From IMG/VR virus record IMGVR_UViG_3300013947_000024, positions 32,001 to 96,000 of that record: a DNA stretch of 64,000 nucleotides; one strand, 5' to 3'. Every line of letters starts with the position of its first letter. The first letter of the stretch is position 1. Made by a program: the position numbers and the translations under genes. The notes under the pieces are model-generated. The model saw only the letters and a list, made by a program, of their open reading frames with translations. It was not told where the DNA came from and did no database searches. Positions 8,490-29,723 of this stretch are shown in pieces. The stretch is from a virus. Lineage: Duplodnaviria; Caudoviricetes.

Positions 8490-10451
8490 ATGGCAGAAAT
8501 TACAATGAAACCTATTACAAGACAACAAACAAGATATATGACAAGAGCCGAATTCGATGCTCTTGATAAAACTACCGTTTCTGTCGGTACTGAAATTTGT
8601 ATCGTAGATCAAATTCAAAAAGAGGATTTATCTACTGATTTACAAAATGCGATAACCAAAGCGGAAGATTCTCTTTCTGCTACTGGCGGGACTGTATCAG
8701 GTGATCTTACAGTATCTGGAAATCTTACCGTTAATGGCACGACCACAACGATTGAGTCTACTACTCTTAAAGTAAAAGACAAACTTATTGAAGTCGCCTC
8801 TGACAATACCGTTGCTCTTACTACTCCCGCTGGTATGGTTGCTCCTAAATATGACGGAACGAATAGTGGCGCTCTTGTGTTTGACTATACAGGTACTGCG
8901 TATGTTGGTGATGTTACTCTTAATGCGGATGGAAATATTGATGTTGGCTCATCTGAACTTCAGCCTCTTGCTACGAGAAATCTTTCTTCTGATGATGACG
9001 GAAAACTTGTTCAGTGGGACGAGACCAATAAGACACTGGTAGCTTCTACTAAGTCTTTTGATGATGTCAGCTCTGCTACCAATCTTCAGAATGGCACTGG
9101 CACAAATACTCTTCAGCAGGCTCCCGCACAGTCTACATTTATCAATACGATTGTTGGATATACGAAGAACGACTCCGAAGGTTCTACCGCAGGTGTTGAT
9201 GCTTATGGAGCTTATGTAGACCCAGTCATTTACAACGCTACTGACAATACAACAACAGTGGTGAATAGTGGCGAGAATACCGTTATGCTCGGTGGACTCT
9301 CTCATAGTGCTCACGGAGTCCCTACTGCTGTTCGACCTGACTACACAGGAGATGCCACACAATCCTTTATCTTTGGTCGAAGAAATATCAATATCGGAGA
9401 CTATAATGCCGTTTTCAATACAGATAATATTATTTATGGCGATAACTGTTTCGTAAGCGGATTGAGAAATGTTTCTCTCGCTAATGAGACTACTATGCTT
9501 GGTACAGGACTTGTTAGCAATCACTTAAGACAAATTGTTCTTGGATATTGCAACGAACCTGATGACACTTCTCGCTTTATGATCGGTGGCGGTTGGATGA
9601 CCCAACATAAAGACGGAACTAATCCAGATGGCTCCAATAAGTATGTTCTTGATTCTATCACTCGCAGAACAATCTTCAAAGTAAGTGAGACAGGCGATAC
9701 TTATGCTTATGGTAAGATGAGCGCGAGACTGACTCCTACCGATGATATTGATGTTGTTAGACTGCAGGAGTTGAATAATAAGTCAACAGAGTTAAGTACA
9801 CAATTTGATAATAAACTTAATGGCAAACTTGATAAGCTCACTCCAAAAACAAGCAGTTTGTTGTATGGTCTTACTCCCGAAGGTAATAATATCGGATTCT
9901 CTACGGGCACTGCTACTGTGTCGCAGTACGCTATCCCTCAGAGAGGTACAAATGGTCAGATTGCAATGCCTAACCAGATCACCTATGCACCTACTGATGA
10001 CCAAGCTATCTCCAAGAGATTTGCAGATAATACTTATGTATTAAAAGGTGAGTCTCCTTCTGGTTCCTCAGCTTCATGGCATGATACTGCACCATCTGAT
10101 ACGAGCAAAGTGTTAATGACGGAGATCACAATTAATCCAGCTTCTACAGATGAGGCTTATATTTTCCATGACTCTAAGTGCATTGTTGCTGGTTATCAAG
10201 TGAATGCCATCAGAGGAACATTCCCGTTGAGTTATCTCACTGAAGAATCGAGATATTGGTATGGCTCTTTTACTGGAACTGTATCTGCTTCTGGTAGCAC
10301 ATCCACTCTGGTAGGTGCTTCAACTATCTCTCTTGCTGGCGTTGTTAATGCGGCTACTGCTCAGAGCGGTGATACCGCTGGGACAACGACATATGCGTAT
10401 GATGGCGGAGATTATAACGACGCCTCTGTGACGTTCAGATTCTTATATTAA
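8490..10451 (+). CDS. Tail fibre/adhesin-like protein
   Basis: 653 aa; paralogous modules shared with 4214-6940, 15119-17998 and 22704-24017. Confidence 0.7.
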   Translation: MAEITMKPITRQQTRYMTRAEFDALDKTTVSVGTEICIVDQIQKEDLSTDLQNAITKAEDSLSATGGTVSGDLTVSGNLTVNGTTTTIESTTLKVKDKLIEVASDNTVALTTPAGMVAPKYDGTNSGALVFDYTGTAYVGDVTLNADGNIDVGSSELQPLATRNLSSDDDGKLVQWDETNKTLVASTKSFDDVSSATNLQNGTGTNTLQQAPAQSTFINTIVGYTKNDSEGSTAGVDAYGAYVDPVIYNATDNTTTVVNSGENTVMLGGLSHSAHGVPTAVRPDYTGDATQSFIFGRRNINIGDYNAVFNTDNIIYGDNCFVSGLRNVSLANETTMLGTGLVSNHLRQIVLGYCNEPDDTSRFMIGGGWMTQHKDGTNPDGSNKYVLDSITRRTIFKVSETGDTYAYGKMSARLTPTDDIDVVRLQELNNKSTELSTQFDNKLNGKLDKLTPKTSSLLYGLTPEGNNIGFSTGTATVSQYAIPQRGTNGQIAMPNQITYAPTDDQAISKRFADNTYVLKGESPSGSSASWHDTAPSDTSKVLMTEITINPASTDEAYIFHDSKCIVAGYQVNAIRGTFPLSYLTEESRYWYGSFTGTVSASGSTSTLVGASTISLAGVVNAATAQSGDTAGTTTYAYDGGDYNDASVTFRFLY

Positions 10452-10912: not shown

Positions 10913-11407
10913 ATGAAATTTGCCTGTGGACCGAAAGAGCGAATTTTAAATGCCATTTCTTCTGGTAAAATAGCAAAAGAGTCGTTGATTCTTACAAGTG
11001 ATGACACGATTGTAGAAATCTTATTTTACGACAAAGACGGGCAACTAAAACAAGCAGATAGAAAATCAAAATTTACCTCCCTTGATGAGGCTCGTACATG
11101 GGCTACTGCATGGGGAGAAGAGGGAGATCTTATCACAGTCAAAGGAAGTGCTGGTTGGCTCCCTTACTATGTTGATACAGATAAGACAGTAAAACAACTT
11201 CCTTCTTCTGGTGGAGGAAGTTCTGGATCATCTGAGGGAATTCAATTCTTTAACTCTGATTTAGATTTTCCTACTAACGGAAGCCATAATATGTTGTATG
11301 TCGATTATGAAAATCGGTATCTGTATTTATGGGATTCTACGGAGGCGAAATACGCTCCGATGAATTATAATTTCCAAAACATTATTATAAATGGAGGACA
11401 AATTTAG
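10913..11407 (+). CDS. Hypothetical virion protein
   Basis: 164 aa, GGAG RBS; FPTNG...LYVD...LYLWD motif, ends IINGG like other fibre proteins. Confidence 0.65.
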   Translation: MKFACGPKERILNAISSGKIAKESLILTSDDTIVEILFYDKDGQLKQADRKSKFTSLDEARTWATAWGEEGDLITVKGSAGWLPYYVDTDKTVKQLPSSGGGSSGSSEGIQFFNSDLDFPTNGSHNMLYVDYENRYLYLWDSTEAKYAPMNYNFQNIIINGGQI

Positions 11408-11408
11408 T

Positions 11409-12677
11409 ATGGCACAAAACACTATTTTGACCACGATTCAGAACAAGCGTGGTCCTGCCGCTAACTGGCAGACAAAGAACCCCGTGCTTGCGGCTGGCGA
11501 GATTGGCGTTGAAACCGACACTCACAAATTTAAGTTTGGTGACGGCGCTACCGCATGGAACGATCTTGCTTATGCTGGTGCAGACGAGGCTCAGATCAAT
11601 GGTCTGATCGCGGCGGCAGAAGACAGATACTTCTCTGTTGTTCGTAATGCTGACGAAGCCGACAACGACGCTATTGCAAGAGCACTCGGAGAAGAGACTG
11701 CAAGCAAGGGCGATATTTGTGTTATCAAGACTGCGCTCGGAACCACTCCTGAATCCTATTCCTTTATGGGATATGTATTCGACGGAGAAAACTGGGGTGC
11801 TATGGATGGCAACATTAGTTCCGAGAACGTTATCCTGTCTAAGGACATCGTGTGCGCTGGCGCGTATACACAGGTCGGAAACATCACAAAGTCTCAGTCT
11901 GGTACTACCACAATCTCTGGAAAGGGCAAGACACTGAACAAGGTTCTTGAATCTATCTTTACGAAGGAACAGAACCCCTCTAAACCCACTCCTACTTGTG
12001 GTGTTACTCTTACTGGTGCTGGCGCAAAGGAAGTTGGTACGGTATTCACTCCTGCTTATACGACTTCTTTCGATAAGAAAGCATACGCTTATGCTCCTAC
12101 CGACACTGGTGTTACGGTAACTGCATGGGAAGTCAAAGACAGCAACGATGTTACGAAGACGACTGCTACTGGCACTTTTGATTCGTTCACTGTTACTGAA
12201 ACCACGAACTATAAGCTGACTGCTAAAGCTACTTATAGCGATGGTAATATTCCTAAGACAAACCTTGGTAATGATTATCCTGCTTCTCAGATTAAGGCTG
12301 GCACCACTGCTTCTGTCAACTCTTCTGCTGTCACTGGTTATCGTAACTGGTTCTATGGTTATAAGAACGCTTCCGGTGTTCTTGATGTTACCGCACTTGA
12401 TTCTGCTAAGATTCGTGCTCTTACCGCTCGCAACGGTTCTTTCCCCGCTACGATTGACACGAACGGAATGCAACAGATGTTCTTTGCTATTCCTGCTGGC
12501 AAGAAGAGCTCGGTTAAGTGTTCTAACAATGTCAACGGCGCTCCCTGCACGATGGTAAAGACTACTGTCAGTGTTGAAGGTGCTAATGGATTTACTGCAA
12601 TTGATTACGATGTTTGGTATGTCAACTCTGCTTCTGCGGACAGTGGCGCCAACACTTACAAGATCGTTGTGGCTTAA
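11409..12677 (+). CDS. Fibre protein with major-tropism-determinant/hyaluronidase-type N-terminal domain
   Basis: NPVLAAGEIGVETDTHKFKFGDG..AWNDL motif; GGAGG RBS. Confidence 0.7.
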   Translation: MAQNTILTTIQNKRGPAANWQTKNPVLAAGEIGVETDTHKFKFGDGATAWNDLAYAGADEAQINGLIAAAEDRYFSVVRNADEADNDAIARALGEETASKGDICVIKTALGTTPESYSFMGYVFDGENWGAMDGNISSENVILSKDIVCAGAYTQVGNITKSQSGTTTISGKGKTLNKVLESIFTKEQNPSKPTPTCGVTLTGAGAKEVGTVFTPAYTTSFDKKAYAYAPTDTGVTVTAWEVKDSNDVTKTTATGTFDSFTVTETTNYKLTAKATYSDGNIPKTNLGNDYPASQIKAGTTASVNSSAVTGYRNWFYGYKNASGVLDVTALDSAKIRALTARNGSFPATIDTNGMQQMFFAIPAGKKSSVKCSNNVNGAPCTMVKTTVSVEGANGFTAIDYDVWYVNSASADSGANTYKIVVA

Positions 12678-20074: not shown

Positions 20075-20103
20075 ATAATTATTCAGCAGGAACGCATATT
20101 TAT

Positions 20104-20254
20104 GAGGACATGAAAACTTACGACTTTAGTCGTGAGATGACTCGCTAACACGCGAGCACGCAGGGTCGGGACGACCCGTAGAGCCTGTGGAGACGCCCGC
20201 GTTAGCGGGGTCGATGAAGCAGGAATCTTGCCACTTTAGTGGCGAGAGGTTCAA
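20104..20254 (+). mobile_element. Miniature non-autonomous IS200/IS605 element (left end + omegaRNA right end, no ORF)
   Basis: Follows TTTAT (20099-20103); LE hairpin CTTACGACTTTAGTCGTGAG; scaffold GGGTCGGGACGACCC..GCCTGTGGAG..GAAGCAGGAATC; RE hairpin CTTGCCACTTTAGTGGCGAG-AGGTTCAA. Confidence 0.8.
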
Positions 20255-20302
20255 ACAAAAACCATGCGTTCCTGCTATCAAAATAGATGAGGAGAAAGAC
20301 AT

Positions 20303-20905
20303 ATGGAATATTTTGACGGCGTAGTAGCCGCTAAACTTTTTGGAGGCGGTGGTGGCGGTGGAGAACCCGTAGATGTTAGTGGCAAGCTCGACAAGGTAAC
20401 AACGACAGCTCTCGTCCCTCGTGTATACGGCGTAAAAGAAGATGGTAGCCAGCTGACTTATTTTGCCACTCCGAGCACAGACGCAAATACCATTGTCATG
20501 AGAGACGCCTCTAAGCATATCGCCGTCGAAGACGGTGTTGCTCCCAAACAGGCAGTAAACAAATCGCAGTTAGACAAGAAGCTCGACATTGAAGGCGGAG
20601 ATATTACTGGAGACCTTTCTGTGGCTGGTAATGTCGACATCACCGGGGTAGCAACACACACAGCGGAAGCGATTTTTAATAGTGGGCTTGAATCTGATGG
20701 TCCTGTTAATGTGAATAATTCCCTCGTAAAGATTACGAATGTTACGAAAGACATTGTTACACAGTATAACGCGGACATGATTACCCTTGAAGAGAACGGA
20801 GATGCCAAACAGTATAATTATACATTTCCTCGCTCTTCTGGCGCGCTTGCTGTTACAGCTCATTCAGAGATTATCAACGAAGACACAGCGGAACAAACGG
20901 TTGAT
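20303..20905 (+). CDS. Tail fibre-like protein, exon 1 (interrupted by IStron)
   Basis: The ORF's only stop is the first codon of the insertion (TTGAT|TAA); it is in frame with 22704-24017. Confidence 0.8.
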
Positions 20906-21360
20906 TAAGAGCACAACACAAACTTTTGACTTTAGTCATGAGTTAAAGTGTGCAAATAGTTAGCACATAGGGAAACTTGTGTGTAGTGGCGCTTACGGCG
21001 TCCAATATTACTTGAAATGCTGGAAACTCCTAAAGCTATTTGAACCACAACATAATTCATTAAATGGAATAAGTGTGACGGTAACGAAAGTAGAAAGAAT
21101 CAAATAGATGGTGCAGGGTTAAATCCTAAACACTCTTACAAAAAAATGGAGAATCAGCAGGGAAGCTCGAAAGAGAACCCCCAACGACTATTCCTCTTGA
21201 GGGAAGTAGGAGCAAGCGCTCCGAAGTGGGTAAGCCCAAACAGGCAAGCTGTGGGATAAGATATAGTCTGTGCTCATGTGAAAGCATGAGATACCTACCG
21301 CTAAACAATACGGCGGATAAGGATGTGTGAGAGTAGCGACCTCATGCGAACGACAACCTC
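20906..21360 (+). ncRNA. Group I intron catalytic core
   Basis: P AAATGCTGGAAACTCC (21015-21030), Q AATCAGCAGG (21152-21161), R CAACGACTAT (~21182), S AAGATATAGTCTG (21258-21270); 3' limit approximate. Confidence 0.85.
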
Positions 21361-21478
21361 TAAGCGACCGATAACCACGGTTATTGTGTCTTCTACAAAA
21401 TTAACAATTGAATATTGGTAACATCACTCTGAAAGCAAGTGTAAAAAAACTTATATAGAAGTAAGAGGAGGTGTTACA

Positions 21479-22585
21479 ATGGAAAAAGCATACAAGTTAA
21501 GAATCTATCCAAACAAACAACAACGGATTCTTTTAGCTAAAACATTTGGATGCGCCAGATTTGTGTATAATCACTATCTCAACAAGAAGATTGATTTATA
21601 CAAAGAGTCTGGCGAATCAATAAGTAATAACGAATGTTCGAGAGATTTAACACTCTTAAAACAGGAGTTAGAATGGCTACAAGAACCTGACAAGTGCGCT
21701 CTTCAAAACGCTCTAAAAGATTTGGATGCTTCGTATAAAAACTTCTTCAAGAATCCATCTCATTTTGGATTCCCAAGGTTTAAGTCGAGGCATGACAATC
21801 ATAGAGCGTATAGAACGAGCTTCTCCAACGGCAACATTGCAATCGCTGGAAATCATATCAAACTTCCTAAACTCGGACAAGTAAAAATCAGAGATAAGTA
21901 TCTTGTTCAAGGAAGAATTTTGAATGTGACAGTATCGCAAGCGCCGAGCGGGAAATATTTCGCCTCTGTTTGTTGTACGGATATTCCGCAAATAGATCTG
22001 CCGAAGACTGGCTCTGCTATCGGAATTGATGTTGGATTAAAGGAATTCTTAATTACAAGCAACGGCGACAAGGTTGCTAATCCAAGATATTTGAGCAAAT
22101 CCTTAGAAAAACTTGCAAGACTTCAAAGAGAGCTTTCGCGAAAACCAAACGGAAGCAATCGGAGAAATAAGGCAAGAATCAAGGTGGCGCGTCAATATGA
22201 AAAGATTAGCAATCAACGAAAAGACTTCTTAAATAAACTCACAACGAACCTTATTAAAGAGAATGACATCATCTGCGTTGAGGATTTACGGGTTGAGAAT
22301 ATGGTTAAGAACCATAAGCTCGCAAGGTCTATTTCAGATGCGTCGTGGGGTGAGTTTAGACGGCAACTTGAATATAAGGCAAGATGGTACGGAAAGAGAA
22401 TTTCTGCGATAGATTCTTTCTTCCCATCAAGTCAGACTTGTAGTTGCTGTGGATTTAAGAATGTAGGGACAAAAGACTTGTCCGTAAGAGAATGGGTGTG
22501 TCCACAATGCAATACGAAGCACGATAGAGACATCAATGCGGCTATCAACATTCTCAACGAAGGATTAAGACTTGTTACTGCATAA
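21479..22585 (+). CDS. tnpB: TnpB RNA-guided endonuclease (IS605 OrfB)
   Basis: N-terminal [11 protein letters not shown]...[10 protein letters not shown]; RuvC residues GIDVG, VEDL, DRDINAA; zinc ribbon CSCC...CPQC; AGGAGG RBS. Confidence 0.95.
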
Positions 22586-22612
22586 ATTGTTAATAATGTA
22601 GAATATACAATA

Positions 22613-22703
22613 ACCGCTGGAACGGCGGGGATAGCTCGGTAAATATCCCGACAGTAGTCGGGAGTTCCCGAGAACCCTGCGACTTTAGTCGCAGGAGGTT
22701 CAG
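22613..22703 (+). ncRNA. TnpB omegaRNA scaffold of the IStron
   Basis: Stem CCGCT-GGAAC-GGCGG whose loop can pair with the terminal GTTC; RE hairpin; predicted guide is the exon 2 start TCTTGGAAGATTAAAG. Confidence 0.8.
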
Positions 22704-24017
22704 TCTTGGAAGATTAAAGACTCGACTTCTTCTGTCTCTATCTATTACGCAGACAACGGGGTACACACTGGCGCCTTGGTACAGAATGGGCACGCAAGCC
22801 TGACATACTCCGATGCGACTAACACCTCCTCTATTATCGTCGGAGATGGTATTGTTTCTCTTTCTTATCAGCCAACAACTGCTGGCGAACAAGCTACCGC
22901 TCTTGTAATCTCCGAAGAGGGCGCGAAGATTAACGGGCAGAAAATCGTCGTTGCTAATGAGATTACAGGCATTCCTTCTCATATCAACATTATTGCTCCC
23001 GAAGGCGCTACAAGTGGCACTCTTGAAACTGTTCAACTCGAAATTCTTCAAGCCAACCTTAGCAACTTTATCGTATTCGCGCATAAGGAATATCACCTTA
23101 ATGCAGACGGTCTCGTAGAAGGGTATCTCACCTATACCTATGGCGGTTATGAAAACAATAAACACATCACGGAATCTATTACTGTTACGGTAAACACAAG
23201 AGCGTGGGTACTTAATAGAGGGCAACTGGTCACTACTACCGATTATGCTAACGGTAGCGTGTCTGGCGTTGTGAATGTTGACGAAGATTTCAGCAAGGGT
23301 CTTCAGGTGTCAAGCACTGGTAATCTTGGCATTTACAGAGCACTTGATACTGATATTTCGTCTCGTACGACCCTTCGTCCTATCACCCCTCTTAATCTTA
23401 ATACGGCTGTTCTTGCGGCTCTTACAGACGCAAACAAGGTAGCGCCTAACGACACGCAGAAAACTGCTTTTAAGACTGCATGGGGTATTACAAGCGCTAA
23501 CGGCACGCGAGTAATCTTTGCCGCTGACGAACCCGCTACTGGAGATTATTCAGAGGGCGATGTGCTTATCAACACCTCAGATGAGTGCTTCTATTGCTTG
23601 CAGAATGGCGCATGGACAAAGCAGGATTCGTTCGGCAAGCCTTCTTGGCATACAACCGCTCCCGCAGATACCTCAAAGGTTCTTCGTACAGAGATCACAT
23701 GGACGAAGGCTATCCAATACAAGAGTGGGTCTCAAGACACGGTTGAATGCCACTTCTTAAGCTCTGGTGATGGCTATGCGAGGTTCGATACCAACGCAAG
23801 CGGAGAGAAACTCTTGCAGGGTTGTACAAACTGGACAGTCAGCGGTTCTTCTAATGGCACGGACGAAGACGGAACAGCCGTAATTATCAACGGAGTTATG
23901 TTCCACGATGTAGATACCGATATTGCGAAGTTTATTGTATACAGATTTTCTGATAGCTCGTCTCTGTTCGGTATGCACTTTGTGCCTACAGACGCTACAT
24001 TCAGATACTTGTACTAA
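22704..24017 (+). CDS. Tail fibre-like protein, exon 2
   Basis: Open from 22704 (SWKIKDSTSS...) in frame with the ORF at 22776; spliced product ~638 aa; C-terminal SWHTTAPADTSKVL..FRYLY paralogous to the 8490 protein. Confidence 0.8.
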   Translation, partial: SWKIKDSTSSVSIYYADNGVHTGALVQNGHASLTYSDATNTSSIIVGDGIVSLSYQPTTAGEQATALVISEEGAKINGQKIVVANEITGIPSHINIIAPEGATSGTLETVQLEILQANLSNFIVFAHKEYHLNADGLVEGYLTYTYGGYENNKHITESITVTVNTRAWVLNRGQLVTTTDYANGSVSGVVNVDEDFSKGLQVSSTGNLGIYRALDTDISSRTTLRPITPLNLNTAVLAALTDANKVAPNDTQKTAFKTAWGITSANGTRVIFAADEPATGDYSEGDVLINTSDECFYCLQNGAWTKQDSFGKPSWHTTAPADTSKVLRTEITWTKAIQYKSGSQDTVECHFLSSGDGYARFDTNASGEKLLQGCTNWTVSGSSNGTDEDGTAVIINGVMFHDVDTDIAKFIVYRFSDSSSLFGMHFVPTDATFRYLY

Positions 24018-24122: not shown

Positions 24123-26105
24123 ATGCGCATCAGATTAACAGAAACATACCGTTTACACAAGGATATCGGCGAGAAAGACAATCATGGAAACCAACTGACC
24201 AAAGAACAGAAGATCTTTTTCAAGAATAGCAAGGTTCGCGATCAAGATGGCAGACTTCTTGTATGTTATCACAATACAAACGCGGACTTTCAAACATTTG
24301 ATACGCAGAAACAGGGAAGTCGTTTTACTGGTAATCTTGGCAACGGATTTTATTTCACGCCATATAAAGATCAGGCGGATTATTATGGTGGGAAATATAC
24401 GATGGAGGTATATCTTCTCGCCACCAATCTGTTTGACACCAACAGCCAAGAAGATATGGAAAATTTGCTTAGAAAAAATCAAATTGTGTATGATAAAAAA
24501 GCGGTACGCGATGCTATGCAAAAGGGCATGGCAACAAGAAATATTTTGCAGTCTGTCGCAGACTATCGCACGCACACGGGCAACATCAACGACGATTTTA
24601 TCGAGCTAATCATGCGTGCTGGATATGACGGTGTTGTAAATGGCGTAATAGGCACTAATGAAGAATATATGGTTTTTGAACCAAATCAGATTAAATCCAT
24701 ATCAAACACAAACCCCACTCATTCTGACAATATAAACGAATATTTTGGATCGTTGAAAGAATCCTATCTTAACGAAGACATTGACGGAATGAGAAAGTTC
24801 TATCCCAATATCGAAGACGATGCCTTTATGACGTTCATAGAGCTTGACCCTACATATACGAATGGTTCTACAAACGCAGGAAAATACGCCCGTTGGATTC
24901 TTGGGCTCGCCAACAAGGGAATGGGAAAGATTGAAAATATTTCGCACCTTTCTGACGCTCTTCGTAGATTTGACGAAGTTCGTAACGACCTCATCAACAA
25001 AGACGTTATGAGATACAAGAGCGTACAGGAGCTTGAGGACGCACTTAACGCGCCCGAATCATACGCGGAGAAATCTCATAGACAAGAGGTTCGTGGTAGA
25101 CAACAGGCTCGTAAAGAAGCCGATATTACCAAAGACGCTGATATTGTATATCAGGATGCTACATGGACTGTGTATGTACCAAAAACCTATGCGGCTTCTT
25201 GCAAGCTCGGTCAGGGGTCTAAATGGTGTACAGCAAGTACAGAAAGCGATTATTATTACAATTACTACCTTTCTGCATACCCCGACTCCAAATACTACAT
25301 CGTTATCAATAACTCTAACCCAGATGAGAAATATCAACTCCATTTTGAAAGCGGTCAGTTCATGGATAAAGATGATGAGCGCATTCACGGAGGAATTGAC
25401 GCATTTAAGGAATATAAGGGGCTGTATGAATTCTTGAAGGGATTGCAGGCATCTCTGTTCTTGAATCAAATCGGAGTCTCAGCAGAGGAAAAAGAATACG
25501 AAGTGAAGATTACTCACGCGGATTTAGCAGAAGCGCTTAGCGACAACTATAGTCGCGACGCGCTCGGAGCAGATGCCATTCGCAACATACTGGATGGGAA
25601 TGCGTGGGACTTGTTTGATGGGTTTAGCAATTTACCCAGAGACGAAATACAGTCCGTATACGACTACGAGATTAGCTCTGAAAATCTGCAAAAAATCGAA
25701 GAGCTTGGAGCAACAGAAGAGTCTATCTTTGACGATAGGGATGATGTGTATTATGCCATTGGTGGCGCCCTTGCTGATGCTTTGCTTGACAACGCGGTAT
25801 CCAACATCGAACGATCGGTGGAAAGTGGGATAGAGGAGGCAATGCCAGCATGGGCACATATCGACGATATTGGGTTTGGATACAAGAAGTCCACATTCAC
25901 AGTCGACACACAAACCTTCAAGGATGCTGTTTCAGACATCATGAACAACTATGACACTGATGCAATGGGGTCTTTAGAGGAAGTACTTCAAAATGTCATT
26001 GACAACAATAGCAACGGAATTTACTACGAAGATGACTATGACTACGACAAAGACACATTTAACGCATTGCTCGCTGACAACCTTTCGGAATTAAAACCAC
26101 AGTAA
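24123..26105 (+). CDS. Multidomain protein: N-terminal ADP-ribosyltransferase-like (ART-PolyVal-type) domain plus a WCTA-motif domain
   Basis: FFKNSKVRD..GRLLVCYH.T..F..FD...GNGFYFT...YG...VYL...GYDGV...EYMVFEPNQIKS; linker NINE..LKES.LNED. Confidence 0.7.
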   Translation: MRIRLTETYRLHKDIGEKDNHGNQLTKEQKIFFKNSKVRDQDGRLLVCYHNTNADFQTFDTQKQGSRFTGNLGNGFYFTPYKDQADYYGGKYTMEVYLLATNLFDTNSQEDMENLLRKNQIVYDKKAVRDAMQKGMATRNILQSVADYRTHTGNINDDFIELIMRAGYDGVVNGVIGTNEEYMVFEPNQIKSISNTNPTHSDNINEYFGSLKESYLNEDIDGMRKFYPNIEDDAFMTFIELDPTYTNGSTNAGKYARWILGLANKGMGKIENISHLSDALRRFDEVRNDLINKDVMRYKSVQELEDALNAPESYAEKSHRQEVRGRQQARKEADITKDADIVYQDATWTVYVPKTYAASCKLGQGSKWCTASTESDYYYNYYLSAYPDSKYYIVINNSNPDEKYQLHFESGQFMDKDDERIHGGIDAFKEYKGLYEFLKGLQASLFLNQIGVSAEEKEYEVKITHADLAEALSDNYSRDALGADAIRNILDGNAWDLFDGFSNLPRDEIQSVYDYEISSENLQKIEELGATEESIFDDRDDVYYAIGGALADALLDNAVSNIERSVESGIEEAMPAWAHIDDIGFGYKKSTFTVDTQTFKDAVSDIMNNYDTDAMGSLEEVLQNVIDNNSNGIYYEDDYDYDKDTFNALLADNLSELKPQ

Positions 26106-27137: not shown

Positions 27138-27153
27138 CGACTAAATCTAATAG
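27138..27153 (+). promoter_or_regulatory. Candidate late-promoter motif, copy 3
   Basis: CGACTAAATCTAATAG upstream of terminase. Confidence 0.6.
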
Positions 27154-27290
27154 TGGCTCTTTACGAGTCAAACAACCAAGAAGCGCGCATTGCACGGTCT
27201 GGAAATCATACAGCCTCCCCTTACCCGCCTTCTTGTTGTAATACACAGGATCGCGGGTTTTTCTTATTCCAGAGGAAAGGAGGAAACAAA

Positions 27291-29723
27291 GTGGAGAATC
27301 TCCCAAAGGAATTACAAGGACTATCGGAAGAAGAATTAAGAGTAGCCAAAGAAATTCTCTCCCAACTTGCTACAGAGGGAAAATCAGAAAAGTTAGATGA
27401 CCTTAAATATGCAGACTATGCAGAGATACCAGTGGATATTGAGACATTTTTGCACGAAAGACAGTATCTTGGCAATGCTCTATACGATCAAGACGGACGA
27501 TTTACCTTGTTCCCCTATTGGGAAGAGAAATTAAAGGAAATCTTTCCAACGAATACGGAAACAGCCTATAATACTGTTATTTTTACAGGCGCTATCGGAC
27601 TTGGAAAGTCGACCATAGCCGTTATCTGTCTTTTGTATATGCTATATCGGCTACTTTGCTTAAAAGACCCATACTTACACTTTGGCTTGCAACCAGTCGA
27701 TAAGATTACAGTATCTCTGATGAACATCACCATTGAAAACGCCAAAGGCGTTGCTGGTGACAAAATGAATCAAATGATCCTGTCAAGTTCATGGTTTATG
27801 AGCCACGGAGAAATGAATGGGACATCGAACCTGTCATACAAGCCGAACAAGCACATTGAGGTTGTAGCCGCGTCAAGCAATAACCAAGTAATTGGTCGCG
27901 CTATTTATTGCTTAGATGGCGATACTGTTATTTCGACATCTACTGGCTCGTATAAAATCAAAGACCTTGTGTATAAACCAATTCGCGTTTATACCGTCGG
28001 AGAAGATAAAAAACAAACACTTAGTGATATTTGTTGCGTAAAACCAACAATCAGGACAAATTGCGAATGCCGTGTTACTTTGGAAGATGGCACTGTAATT
28101 AGGTGCACCGCGAATCATAGACTAATGCTCCATGACGGTGCATACAAGGAAGCATTCACATTGCATAGCGGAGATCGTCTGTATAGTGTTGGTTTTAATT
28201 CGATGGTCGTTAAATCGGTAGATACTGTGAAATTGTATGAAAAGAAGCAGTTTTATGATGTGGTAGAGTGCAATCCGAATCATAATTTCATTATTAAGAC
28301 GATCACGGGAGAAATCGTCTCGCATAACTGCAACTTTAGTGATGAGGTCAACTGGGGAATTACCAACGACACAGAGAAGCTAAAGAAGAAGTATAAACAA
28401 CTTATTGCGCAGATTGACGCTCGTATGAAGTCTCGTTTCTTGCGAGGGACATATCTACCGACAATGAATATCATTGCGTCTTCAAAGAACAACGAACAAT
28501 CGTTCTTGGACGAATATATCAACCTAAAAAAGAAAAACGAGTCAAAGAATACTCTTATTGTTGATGAGCCACAGTGGGTGGTTGATAATCGAAAAGACAC
28601 GAAGGAAAAGTTTTTTGTAGCAATAGGTAATAGATTCCTTGCTAATGAATTGTTGCCAAGAGACGCCTCTGAAATATTGCTTGATGAATATAGAGCTAAG
28701 GGGTATTCAATTCTTAAAGTCCCTATGGGGTATTTGGAAGACTTTCAGCAGAACATAGACCAAGCGCTTATGGATATTGCTGGAATTGCTACGGCAAGTG
28801 CTACAAAATATATTTCTGGCGTCAGATGGAATGAGATTAAGAATGATAAATATCAGAATCCGTTTGTAAAAGAAATTATCGAAGTCGGAACCGCTAAAGA
28901 CGATATTGCACAGTATAGCGATTTCTTCGATATTTCAAGAATTCCACCAGAGATTCGACATAAGCCGATATATCTTCACCTCGACCTATCTGTTAAAGGA
29001 GACAAAACAGGTATAGGTGCAGTTGCCGCAATAGGCAAAAAACCATCGGTTGAAGGTGCTGACGCGTCGAGAGACATGATATACCGCATTGTTTTTAGTG
29101 TGAGCGTGCAGGCACCAAAAGGCTATGAAATCAGCTTTGATAAATCACGCACATTTGTTAGGTGGTTACGGGAAAATGGATTTAACATTAAGGGCGTTTC
29201 ATTCGACTCGTTCGCCTCCCCACAGTTAAAACAGCAGTTAATAGCAGATGGATTTGTGGCGCAAACAATCTCCGTAGATAGACTTGACCCCGAAACAAAG
29301 CAGTGTCTTCCGTATGCTTATTTCAAGTCAACGGTATATGAGAGACGCATTGAGGTCTATGCTGATTGCCCATTCTTAACAGAGGAAGTTTTAGGGCTTG
29401 AAAGAGAACTTGATGGGCATGTAAACCACCCCGATAATGGTAAAAACGGATCGAAAGATGCAATCGACGCAATCGTAGGAGCGCTCTATCATGCCTCTCA
29501 GCACGCTGAAGAATACGCCTATGATTACGGAGAATCAATAGATGTGATGCTGGAGTCAAACCAAGACGAAGGAATCAATCAAGCAAAAGAACAAGCAACA
29601 GTTGATTTTGCACAAGAGCTACAAAAGGTAATTATGCAAAACCGATCTATTTCCACACTACACCAAGAAGAAGCACAACATCAAGACCTACACGACAACG
29701 GGTTCTATGATGTTGTCATCTGA
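27291..29723 (+). CDS. terL: Terminase large subunit with mini-intein
   Basis: Walker A GAIGLGKST; Walker B (AIY-CNFSDEV after splicing); nuclease HLDLS..GD and SKDAIDA; GTG start after AGGAGG; precedes portal. Confidence 0.9.
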   Translation: MENLPKELQGLSEEELRVAKEILSQLATEGKSEKLDDLKYADYAEIPVDIETFLHERQYLGNALYDQDGRFTLFPYWEEKLKEIFPTNTETAYNTVIFTGAIGLGKSTIAVICLLYMLYRLLCLKDPYLHFGLQPVDKITVSLMNITIENAKGVAGDKMNQMILSSSWFMSHGEMNGTSNLSYKPNKHIEVVAASSNNQVIGRAIYCLDGDTVISTSTGSYKIKDLVYKPIRVYTVGEDKKQTLSDICCVKPTIRTNCECRVTLEDGTVIRCTANHRLMLHDGAYKEAFTLHSGDRLYSVGFNSMVVKSVDTVKLYEKKQFYDVVECNPNHNFIIKTITGEIVSHNCNFSDEVNWGITNDTEKLKKKYKQLIAQIDARMKSRFLRGTYLPTMNIIASSKNNEQSFLDEYINLKKKNESKNTLIVDEPQWVVDNRKDTKEKFFVAIGNRFLANELLPRDASEILLDEYRAKGYSILKVPMGYLEDFQQNIDQALMDIAGIATASATKYISGVRWNEIKNDKYQNPFVKEIIEVGTAKDDIAQYSDFFDISRIPPEIRHKPIYLHLDLSVKGDKTGIGAVAAIGKKPSVEGADASRDMIYRIVFSVSVQAPKGYEISFDKSRTFVRWLRENGFNIKGVSFDSFASPQLKQQLIADGFVAQTISVDRLDPETKQCLPYAYFKSTVYERRIEVYADCPFLTEEVLGLERELDGHVNHPDNGKNGSKDAIDAIVGALYHASQHAEEYAYDYGESIDVMLESNQDEGINQAKEQATVDFAQELQKVIMQNRSISTLHQEEAQHQDLHDNGFYDVVI
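27909..28328 (+). mobile_element. Mini-intein (140 aa) in terminase
   Basis: Begins CLDGDT, has block B TANHRL, ends IVSHN followed by Cys+1; no endonuclease domain. Confidence 0.9.

Follow-up and report, generated by a model that had tools for sequence, protein, structure and literature searches.

A probable CdISt1-type IStron interrupting a tail-category gene of an uncultured phage

Phage group I introns that carry homing endonucleases, such as the T4 td intron with I-TevI and the introns in the DNA polymerase genes of SPO1 and SP82, are self-splicing, interrupt an essential gene, and encode a nuclease that cuts the intron-less alleles of co-infecting relatives. IStrons join a group I intron to a transposable element, and their self-splicing restores the mRNA (Tourasse 2014; Zedaveinyte 2023). 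The Clostridioides difficile element CdISt1, or CdiIStron, is a group A IStron (Braun 2000; Tourasse 2014, PMC4227781; Zedaveinyte 2023, bioRxiv 10.1101/2023.11.20.567912); members of this group lie after TTGAT, ATTAT or TTTAT, have the 3' terminus TCAG, and are 1779-2213 bp long, and an 'ORF B only' variant is listed for CdISt1 (Tourasse 2014, PMC4227781). IStrons of group B, which are of the IS607 type, are known from phages: CbISt3 and CbISt4 lie in the Clostridium botulinum phages c-st and D-1873 (Tourasse 2014). Here we describe an element of this kind in IMG/VR virus record IMGVR_UViG_3300013947_000024. The stretch analyzed, called the window below, comprises 64,000 nucleotides (nt), bases 32001-96000 of the 129,560-bp record, for which CheckV estimates a completeness of 83%. 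We conclude that the window very probably contains a non-autonomous CdISt1-type group A IStron that transposed into a TTGAT sequence of a tail-category gene; its splicing, its throttling by TnpB and its homing are activities that we infer.

Comparison of the element with CdISt1 and other IStrons

The element begins directly after a TTGAT at 20901-20905 and ends with GGTTCAG at 22697-22703, the last G of which is the omega-G of the intron. An original prediction, made from the letters of the window, had proposed a 1798-bp insertion with these same boundaries, IS605 end hairpins, and a group I intron whose 5' splice site pairs with GTTAGC so as to place the left end of the insertion sequence in the P1 loop; all of these held in our analysis, the coordinates in the sequence itself and the end hairpins as stems with TTTA loops at both ends. 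The Rfam model Intron_gpI matched positions 20916-21290 over its full length (model positions 1-253) with 56.3 bits relative to a gathering score of 50, and with E-values of 4.6e-13 for the local search and 1.3e-11 for the whole window. The whole-window run at the gathering score missed the ribozyme through its speed filters, but a more sensitive mode passed that score. When we folded the 5' 435 nt of the IStron together with three CdISt1-type copies using RNAalifold, a consensus of 130 pairs was obtained, 25 of which were kept by changes on both sides relative to CdISt1, and the core motifs were identical. The left-end hairpin was located within the extended P1 loop, and the last exon bases, UGAU, paired with GUUA of the internal guide sequence. 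In this pairing G20959 stands opposite the splice-site U20905 as a U-G wobble, in the same register as the GUCAG of CdISt1; the C of the CdISt1 guide is a U in the IStron here, with a G-U pair retained. Extension of the P1 helix by hand added the pairs U20901-G20963 and G20900-C20964. The features of the locus are collected in Table 1.

Table 1. Features of the split gene, of the IStron within it, and of other TnpB elements of the phage (window positions, except those given in G000:C1 numbering)
Feature	Position	Strand	Remarks
Exon 1, host gene	20303..20905	+	201 codons; terminates in TTGAT; open reading frame (ORF) list
TTGAT	20901..20905	+	IS605/CdISt1 target pentanucleotide; expected target-adjacent motif (TAM) of TnpB; 5' exon half of P1
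Whole IStron	20906..22703	+	1798 nt; tnpA-less 'ORF B only' form
Group I ribozyme core P1-P9	20916..21290	+	Rfam RF00028 Intron_gpI
Left-end subterminal hairpin, loop TTTA	20922..20943	+	repeat family and motif scan; paired in all four aligned sequences
Internal guide sequence GUUAGC	20959..20964	+	pairs with exon GUUGAU, 20900-20905
Long-range stem, 5' arm	21378..21409	+	with the 3' arm, loops out tnpB
tnpB	21479..22585	+	368 amino acids; AGGAGG ribosome-binding site 8 nt before ATG
Long-range stem, 3' arm	22585..22616	+	overlaps start of first conserved right-end (omegaRNA) stem
Right end, 3' part of putative omegaRNA scaffold	22610..22703	+	three stem-loops and terminal GGTTCAG
Right-end hairpin, loop TTTA	22676-22695	+	repeat family and motif scan
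Putative omegaRNA guide, 16 nt, equal to the target in the empty allele, TCTTGGAAGATTAAAG	22704..22719	+	position next to right end
Exon 2, host gene	22704..24017	+	437 codons and stop (stop at 24015-24017)
Other TnpB element, tnpB only	G000:C1 100,4xx-101,807		
Other TnpB elements	G000:C1 104,4xx-106,1xx; 116,2xx-117,646		one with full Y1 tnpA, one with tnpA remnant

Two further arms of 32 nt, 88% complementary to each other, enclose tnpB in a long-range stem. CdISt1 and a copy in a Clostridioides phage have a stem of 31 nt in the same place, with unrelated sequence. Because the 3' arm of the long-range stem runs into the right-end stem, the intron fold and the guide-RNA fold would be expected to compete for the same bases.

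The best DNA match to the IStron was an unannotated stretch of Clostridioides phage ES-S-0173-01 (GenBank CP067352.1, L011:1489-3390), which reads TTGAT followed by TAA, has the same left-end hairpin and the ATAGTYAGCAYATAGGGAAAC block, and ends in GGTTCAG. From the features common to these two elements alone, in the left end and internal guide, we built a family motif and found it at 31 places in species-representative bacterial genomes, 30 of them in C. difficile and one in a Proteocatella metagenome-assembled genome (MAG). Each of the 31 CdISt1-type copies retrieved follows TTGAT, which agrees with the published rule and with the statement to this effect in the original prediction; the fetched DNA reached the 3' end of 14 copies, all of which terminate in GGTTCAG, with lengths of 1826-2214 bp. 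Like CdISt1, the IStron in the window has the TTGAT target, the TCAG 3' end, a 5' ribozyme, presumably of the IA2 type, the left-end hairpin in the P1 loop, the register of the guide, a long-range stem around the ORF, an IS605-type TnpB, and the length of about 1.8 kb of the 'ORF B only' form. Since that form is a known variant of CdISt1, the missing Y1 TnpA does not exclude membership. The intron DNA, in contrast, is only about 66% identical to that of CdISt1, the internal guide is GUUAG rather than GUCAG, more G-C pairs occur in the terminal right-end stem-loop, and the element is present once, in a phage virion gene, whereas CdISt1 occurs in 9-24 copies per bacterial chromosome. TnpB shares 62% identity with its CdISt1-type counterpart in the Clostridioides phage. 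Judged from these sequence features, the element is a complete and well preserved CdISt1-type group A IStron.

Several other systems resemble the locus in part. The ES-S-0173-01 element is also phage-borne, lies after TTGAT, begins with an in-frame TAA, ends in GGTTCAG, and splits an essential late gene; it differs in being nearly a C. difficile CdISt1 copy and in splitting the gene for the large terminase (exon 1, 703-1488; exon 2 from 3391). The GenBank record carries no annotation of that IStron, and we found no paper describing it. Rfam failed to flag the clearly homologous intron in this stretch, and a blank result from the Rfam group I model therefore does not show that an intron is absent. 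CbISt3 and CbISt4 share with the element here a phage location and the combination of a group I intron, presumably IA2 in our case too, with TnpB, but they have targets ending in GG, the 3' end CGG, and a serine recombinase as partner. ISDra2 has a TnpB homologous from end to end with the same catalytic residues, TTGAT as TAM, and a guide taken from the DNA flanking the right end, as is predicted for the IStron; unlike the latter, it lacks a ribozyme and carries its own tnpA (Karvelis 2021; Meers 2023, PMC10055086). From the td/I-TevI and SPO1/SP82 introns the element would differ in that its nuclease is predicted to be RNA-guided and in that it is also a transposon. The nearest bacterial TnpBs, from Eubacterium ruminantium and a Clostridiales MAG, were 61-62% identical. 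No intron was seen at either of these two tnpB loci, one of which is on a contig that ends 113 nt upstream of tnpB, and no donor was thus identified. Taken at sequence level, the element is a distinct lineage within a known kind, with natural empty alleles recognized through their proteins.

The exon junction and uninterrupted alleles

When the IStron is removed, the 201 codons of exon 1 and the 437 codons of exon 2 join in frame to give a protein of 638 amino acids, with neither stops nor frameshifts in either exon as judged from the ORF list. The first three bases of the intron are an in-frame TAA, which halts translation of unspliced RNA. A search with exon 2 recovered five uninterrupted relatives, single chains of 632-662 amino acids that align to both exons with no gap at the joint. 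Two of these, P0002 (61-kb contig) and P0008 (122-kb contig), belong to one cluster, have the exact length of 638 amino acids, are uninterrupted, and read AEQTVDSWKIKDS across the junction, with TVD-SWKIKD running straight through the joint. Natural alleles thus have the reading frame that the original prediction had reconstructed, in which splicing yields EQTVD joined to SWKIKD within a protein of about 638 residues.

P0002 and P0008 are 99% identical to the conceptual spliced product over residues 1-519. Of the 50 differences that separate P0008 from this product, 5 fall in residues 1-519 and 45 in residues 520-633. The exon 1 product is 100% identical to residues 1-201 of P0008, and the exon 2 product shares 89% identity with P0002/P0008. 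The 16 nt that follow the joint encode SWKIK and supply the first base of D; both proteins retain these residues, and the first difference downstream is at residue 209, 8 residues away and beyond these 16 nt. From the V-D at the joint and the near identity of the surrounding residues, we infer that the intron-less alleles contain TTGAT. The original prediction had asked for a search for alleles that are contiguous across this site in related phages, and would have been refuted by their absence; such alleles were found at the protein level, but no DNA match was obtained. Searches for DNA relatives by P0002 or by the relatives' alignment found none in viral, metagenome and genome collections, and a degenerate DNA pattern for the empty junction had no match in viral or metagenome contigs.

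The C-terminal 118 residues (520-638; window 23860-24014) are about 62% identical to those of P0008, giving the protein a mosaic tip of a sort typical of host-range modules.

The split allele also occurs more than once. P0001, which is identical to the exon 2 ORF, is present on two Logan/ENA contigs, and P0007, encoded on a 4.7-kb ENA contig, is a version of exon 1 that lacks 10 residues (HSEIINEDTA) and likewise stops after TVD. As P0007 represents a second split allele, the IStron-bearing allele has diversified. These data bear on two other explanations of the arrangement. If the assembler had joined the IStron into the host gene by mistake, as could happen with a repeated element, the several related IS605-type right ends in this phage would be a possible cause of the confusion; however, the other copies are too different to collapse (TnpB identity of only 36-43%, and identity of about 72-75% over short stretches of DNA), the boundaries are exactly TTGAT and TCAG with the frame restored, and independent assemblies give ORFs of the same exon sizes. 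We therefore give an assembly chimera almost no credence. It is likewise very improbable, though slightly less so, that the gene is simply split, with the 201-residue piece and a 413-residue piece from TTG 22776 made separately and assembled without splicing. Gene callers do list the two pieces as separate proteins (P0010; P0013/P0001), but TTG 22776 is not preceded by a Shine-Dalgarno sequence, a start there would lose 24 conserved codons (22704-22775) that align with the uninterrupted homologues, and all full-length relatives, of 632-662 amino acids, are single chains.

TnpB, the putative omegaRNA and the proposed mechanism

TnpB contains the Pfam domains HTH_OrfB_IS605 (PF12323), OrfB_IS605 (PF01385) and Cas12f1-like_TNB (PF07282), matches PHROG 506 with an E-value of 5e-139, and aligns end to end with the structures of ISDra2 TnpB (8bf8/8exa/8h1j; E 1.9e-112). 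In this alignment D184, E268 and D351 are opposite the catalytic residues D191, E278 and D361 of 8bf8, so that the three acidic RuvC residues reported in the original prediction correspond to the ISDra2 triad. The CxxC...CxxC zinc finger is intact, with CSCC from residue 321 and CPQC from residue 341. To characterize the right end, we aligned the last 150 nt of the IStron with the right ends of four further elements: the IStron of the Clostridioides phage, two TnpB elements located elsewhere in the phage studied here, and a mini-element that lies upstream of the host gene. The three stems were kept with compensatory changes among these five elements, and the loop of the terminal hairpin, TTTA, was constant. 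The segment 22520-22703 folded better than all of 200 shuffled sequences (z = -4.3), and no Rfam family matched the right end. We take the right end to be a probable omegaRNA scaffold, an assignment that draws on the conserved stems and the folding energy; its terminus would at the same time supply the 3' splice site. No other TTGAT-flanked site within 4 or fewer mismatches of the 16-nt target was present in the phage genome, and self-cutting would be avoided in the split allele because the target there is preceded by TTCAG rather than by TTGAT. All parts that splicing and TnpB-omegaRNA function are predicted to need were intact.

We propose that, in late transcripts, the ribozyme would splice out all 1798 nt, which would make production of the fibre dependent on splicing. 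Transcripts folded or processed into TnpB-omegaRNA would be lost to fibre synthesis, in keeping with the finding that a given transcript either matures into omegaRNA or is spliced, but not both (Zedaveinyte 2023). With the opening 16 nt of exon 2 as its guide, the nuclease would cut intron-less alleles flanked by TTGAT in relatives that infect the same cell, and the IStron would be copied in when the break is repaired by recombination. Cutting of empty sites by TnpB is reported to promote retention or homing (Meers 2023, PMC10055086). Insertion at new sites would need a Y1 TnpA supplied in trans. No match to Y1_Tnp was found inside 20906-22703, so that the absence of tnpA in the original prediction holds for the element; it does not hold for the phage, which has a full Y1 tnpA at G000 104499-104867, about 50 kb from the IStron.

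Several observations weigh against this interpretation or against parts of it. The only full tnpA in the phage belongs to an IS605 element with different hairpin stems and the end TTCAC. That the host gene depends on splicing, that TnpB throttles it and that empty alleles are cut are all ideas carried over by analogy from other, published IStrons, and the experiments on the antagonism of splicing and omegaRNA maturation used IS607-type rather than IS605-type IStrons. The evidence for an empty site, TTGAT followed by TCTTGG, is at the protein level. Exon 1 matches the intron-less allele at 100% identity, so the insertion may have happened too recently for intact exons to be proof of selection. 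Finally, the terminal right-end stem-loop has a predicted stability of -17.7 kcal/mol, versus -11.0 kcal/mol in the CdISt1-type copy of the Clostridioides phage, and in two IS607-type elements, CboIStron and CseIStron-1, stabilizing the base of the omegaRNA stem-loop nearest the 3' end abolished splicing but left cleavage in place (Mortman and Sternberg 2026). The element here may on this account lean toward production of the nuclease, with the caution that the rule is known from IS607-type, not from IS605-type, IStrons.

The last two observations are also those that would be expected if the insertion were recent and essentially dead, with poor splicing or none, and the host gene a fresh pseudogene whose loss is tolerated through other fibre-like genes. 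The identity of exon 1 leaves little time since insertion, the terminal stem-loop is 6.7 kcal/mol more stable than that of the CdISt1-type copy, and there are several other large tail-category genes in the same block. However, the ribozyme core is complete, with helices kept by the 25 compensatory changes; P1, including the U-G wobble, is intact, as are the omega-G and the long-range stem; more than one assembly shows this split allele; neither exon has decayed; and the effect of stem stability has been shown for IS607-type elements only. We consider a dead insertion unlikely and favor the interpretation proposed above.

A more far-reaching proposal, which we put forward only tentatively and consider rather doubtful, is that the IStron serves as an RNA-guided device for homing and marker exclusion. 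By cutting the intron-less fibre allele of close relatives during co-infection and causing flanking fibre sequence to be copied along with it, the IStron would bias inheritance of the host-range module, and the stable terminal stem would tilt transcripts toward the nuclease. Split and unsplit alleles diverge strongly in the C-terminal 118 amino acids and nowhere else.

Public data contain both split and unsplit alleles, with 99% identity around the site and with TnpB, guide and TTGAT intact. They form a natural substrate pair suited to testing whether the TnpB of an IStron drives intron homing between phages, and to asking how one transcript is shared between a virion protein and a guide RNA. 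No new principle is involved, as phage IStrons (2014), homing by TnpB (2023) and competition of splicing with guide-RNA formation (2023, 2026) have been published; the locus is a good test case rather than a new kind of element.

The host gene and other elements of the phage

The host gene had no match to GenBank phages at either the DNA or the protein level, and we therefore regard the phage as belonging to an uncultured lineage. No Pfam match was obtained for the host protein, but residues 26-117 gave a weak profile match to PHROG 8780, 'minor tail protein', with an E-value of 1.2e-6. A profile search of 1.84 billion representatives yielded 871 relatives that share single modules with the protein, and five of the nine distant relatives scanned matched PHROGs, all five of the 'tail' category. 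A gene in the same neighbourhood, at 11391-12674, matches tail-fibre N-terminal PHROGs; terminase and portal genes follow, and the block contains several other large tail-category genes. A search of the PDB with the host protein found no relative, the AlphaFold model was unusable (pLDDT 38, with meaningless Foldseek matches at a TM score of about 0.1), and ESM Atlas gave only sub-threshold 'tail fibre like' leads. The modular make-up of the protein and its swapped C-terminal 118 amino acids are compatible with a fibre. From these matches the host gene is likely to be tail-fibre-like, so that of the original prediction of a tail-fibre gene the tail category stands, by weak profile matches, and identity as a fibre is putative. 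The same prediction had described the C terminus as paralogous to that of the gene at 8490. We rejected this paralogy as stated: BLASTP found only short shared motifs, one of 19 residues (68% identity, E 2e-5) and, at the N terminus, GG..GDL.V.GN. Scans for promoters and terminators gave sites no more frequent than expected by chance.

Beyond the end of the window the phage has three further IS605-type TnpB genes, 36-43% identical, for a total of four in 130 kb. We considered whether the three might also be IStrons and rejected this, as Rfam found no intron in them, a weak argument given its failure with ES-S-0173-01, and as in one of the elements only about 135 nt separate the left-end hairpin from tnpB.

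The mini-element included in the right-end alignment is a protein-less IS605 element (palindrome-associated transposable element, PATE) of about 151-152 nt at window 20104-20255, 48 nt upstream of the start codon of the host gene. It follows TTTAT, ends in GGTTCAA, and at its right end hardly differs from the TnpB element at G000 100.4-101.8 kb. On either side lie the halves of a perfect 13-nt inverted repeat (20085-20097 and 20264-20276), an arrangement suggestive of insertion into the loop of a hairpin between genes.

Immediately after the host gene, at window 24123-26102, is a gene for a 660-residue protein with an N-terminal ART-PolyVal ADP-ribosyltransferase domain (E 1.4e-21), a domain typical of polyvalent proteins. 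The large terminase ORF (window 27153-29720) is unusually long, at 856 amino acids, and its residues 287-465 gave a sub-threshold match to Pfam Intein_splicing (E 1.3e-4), which points to a possible intein.

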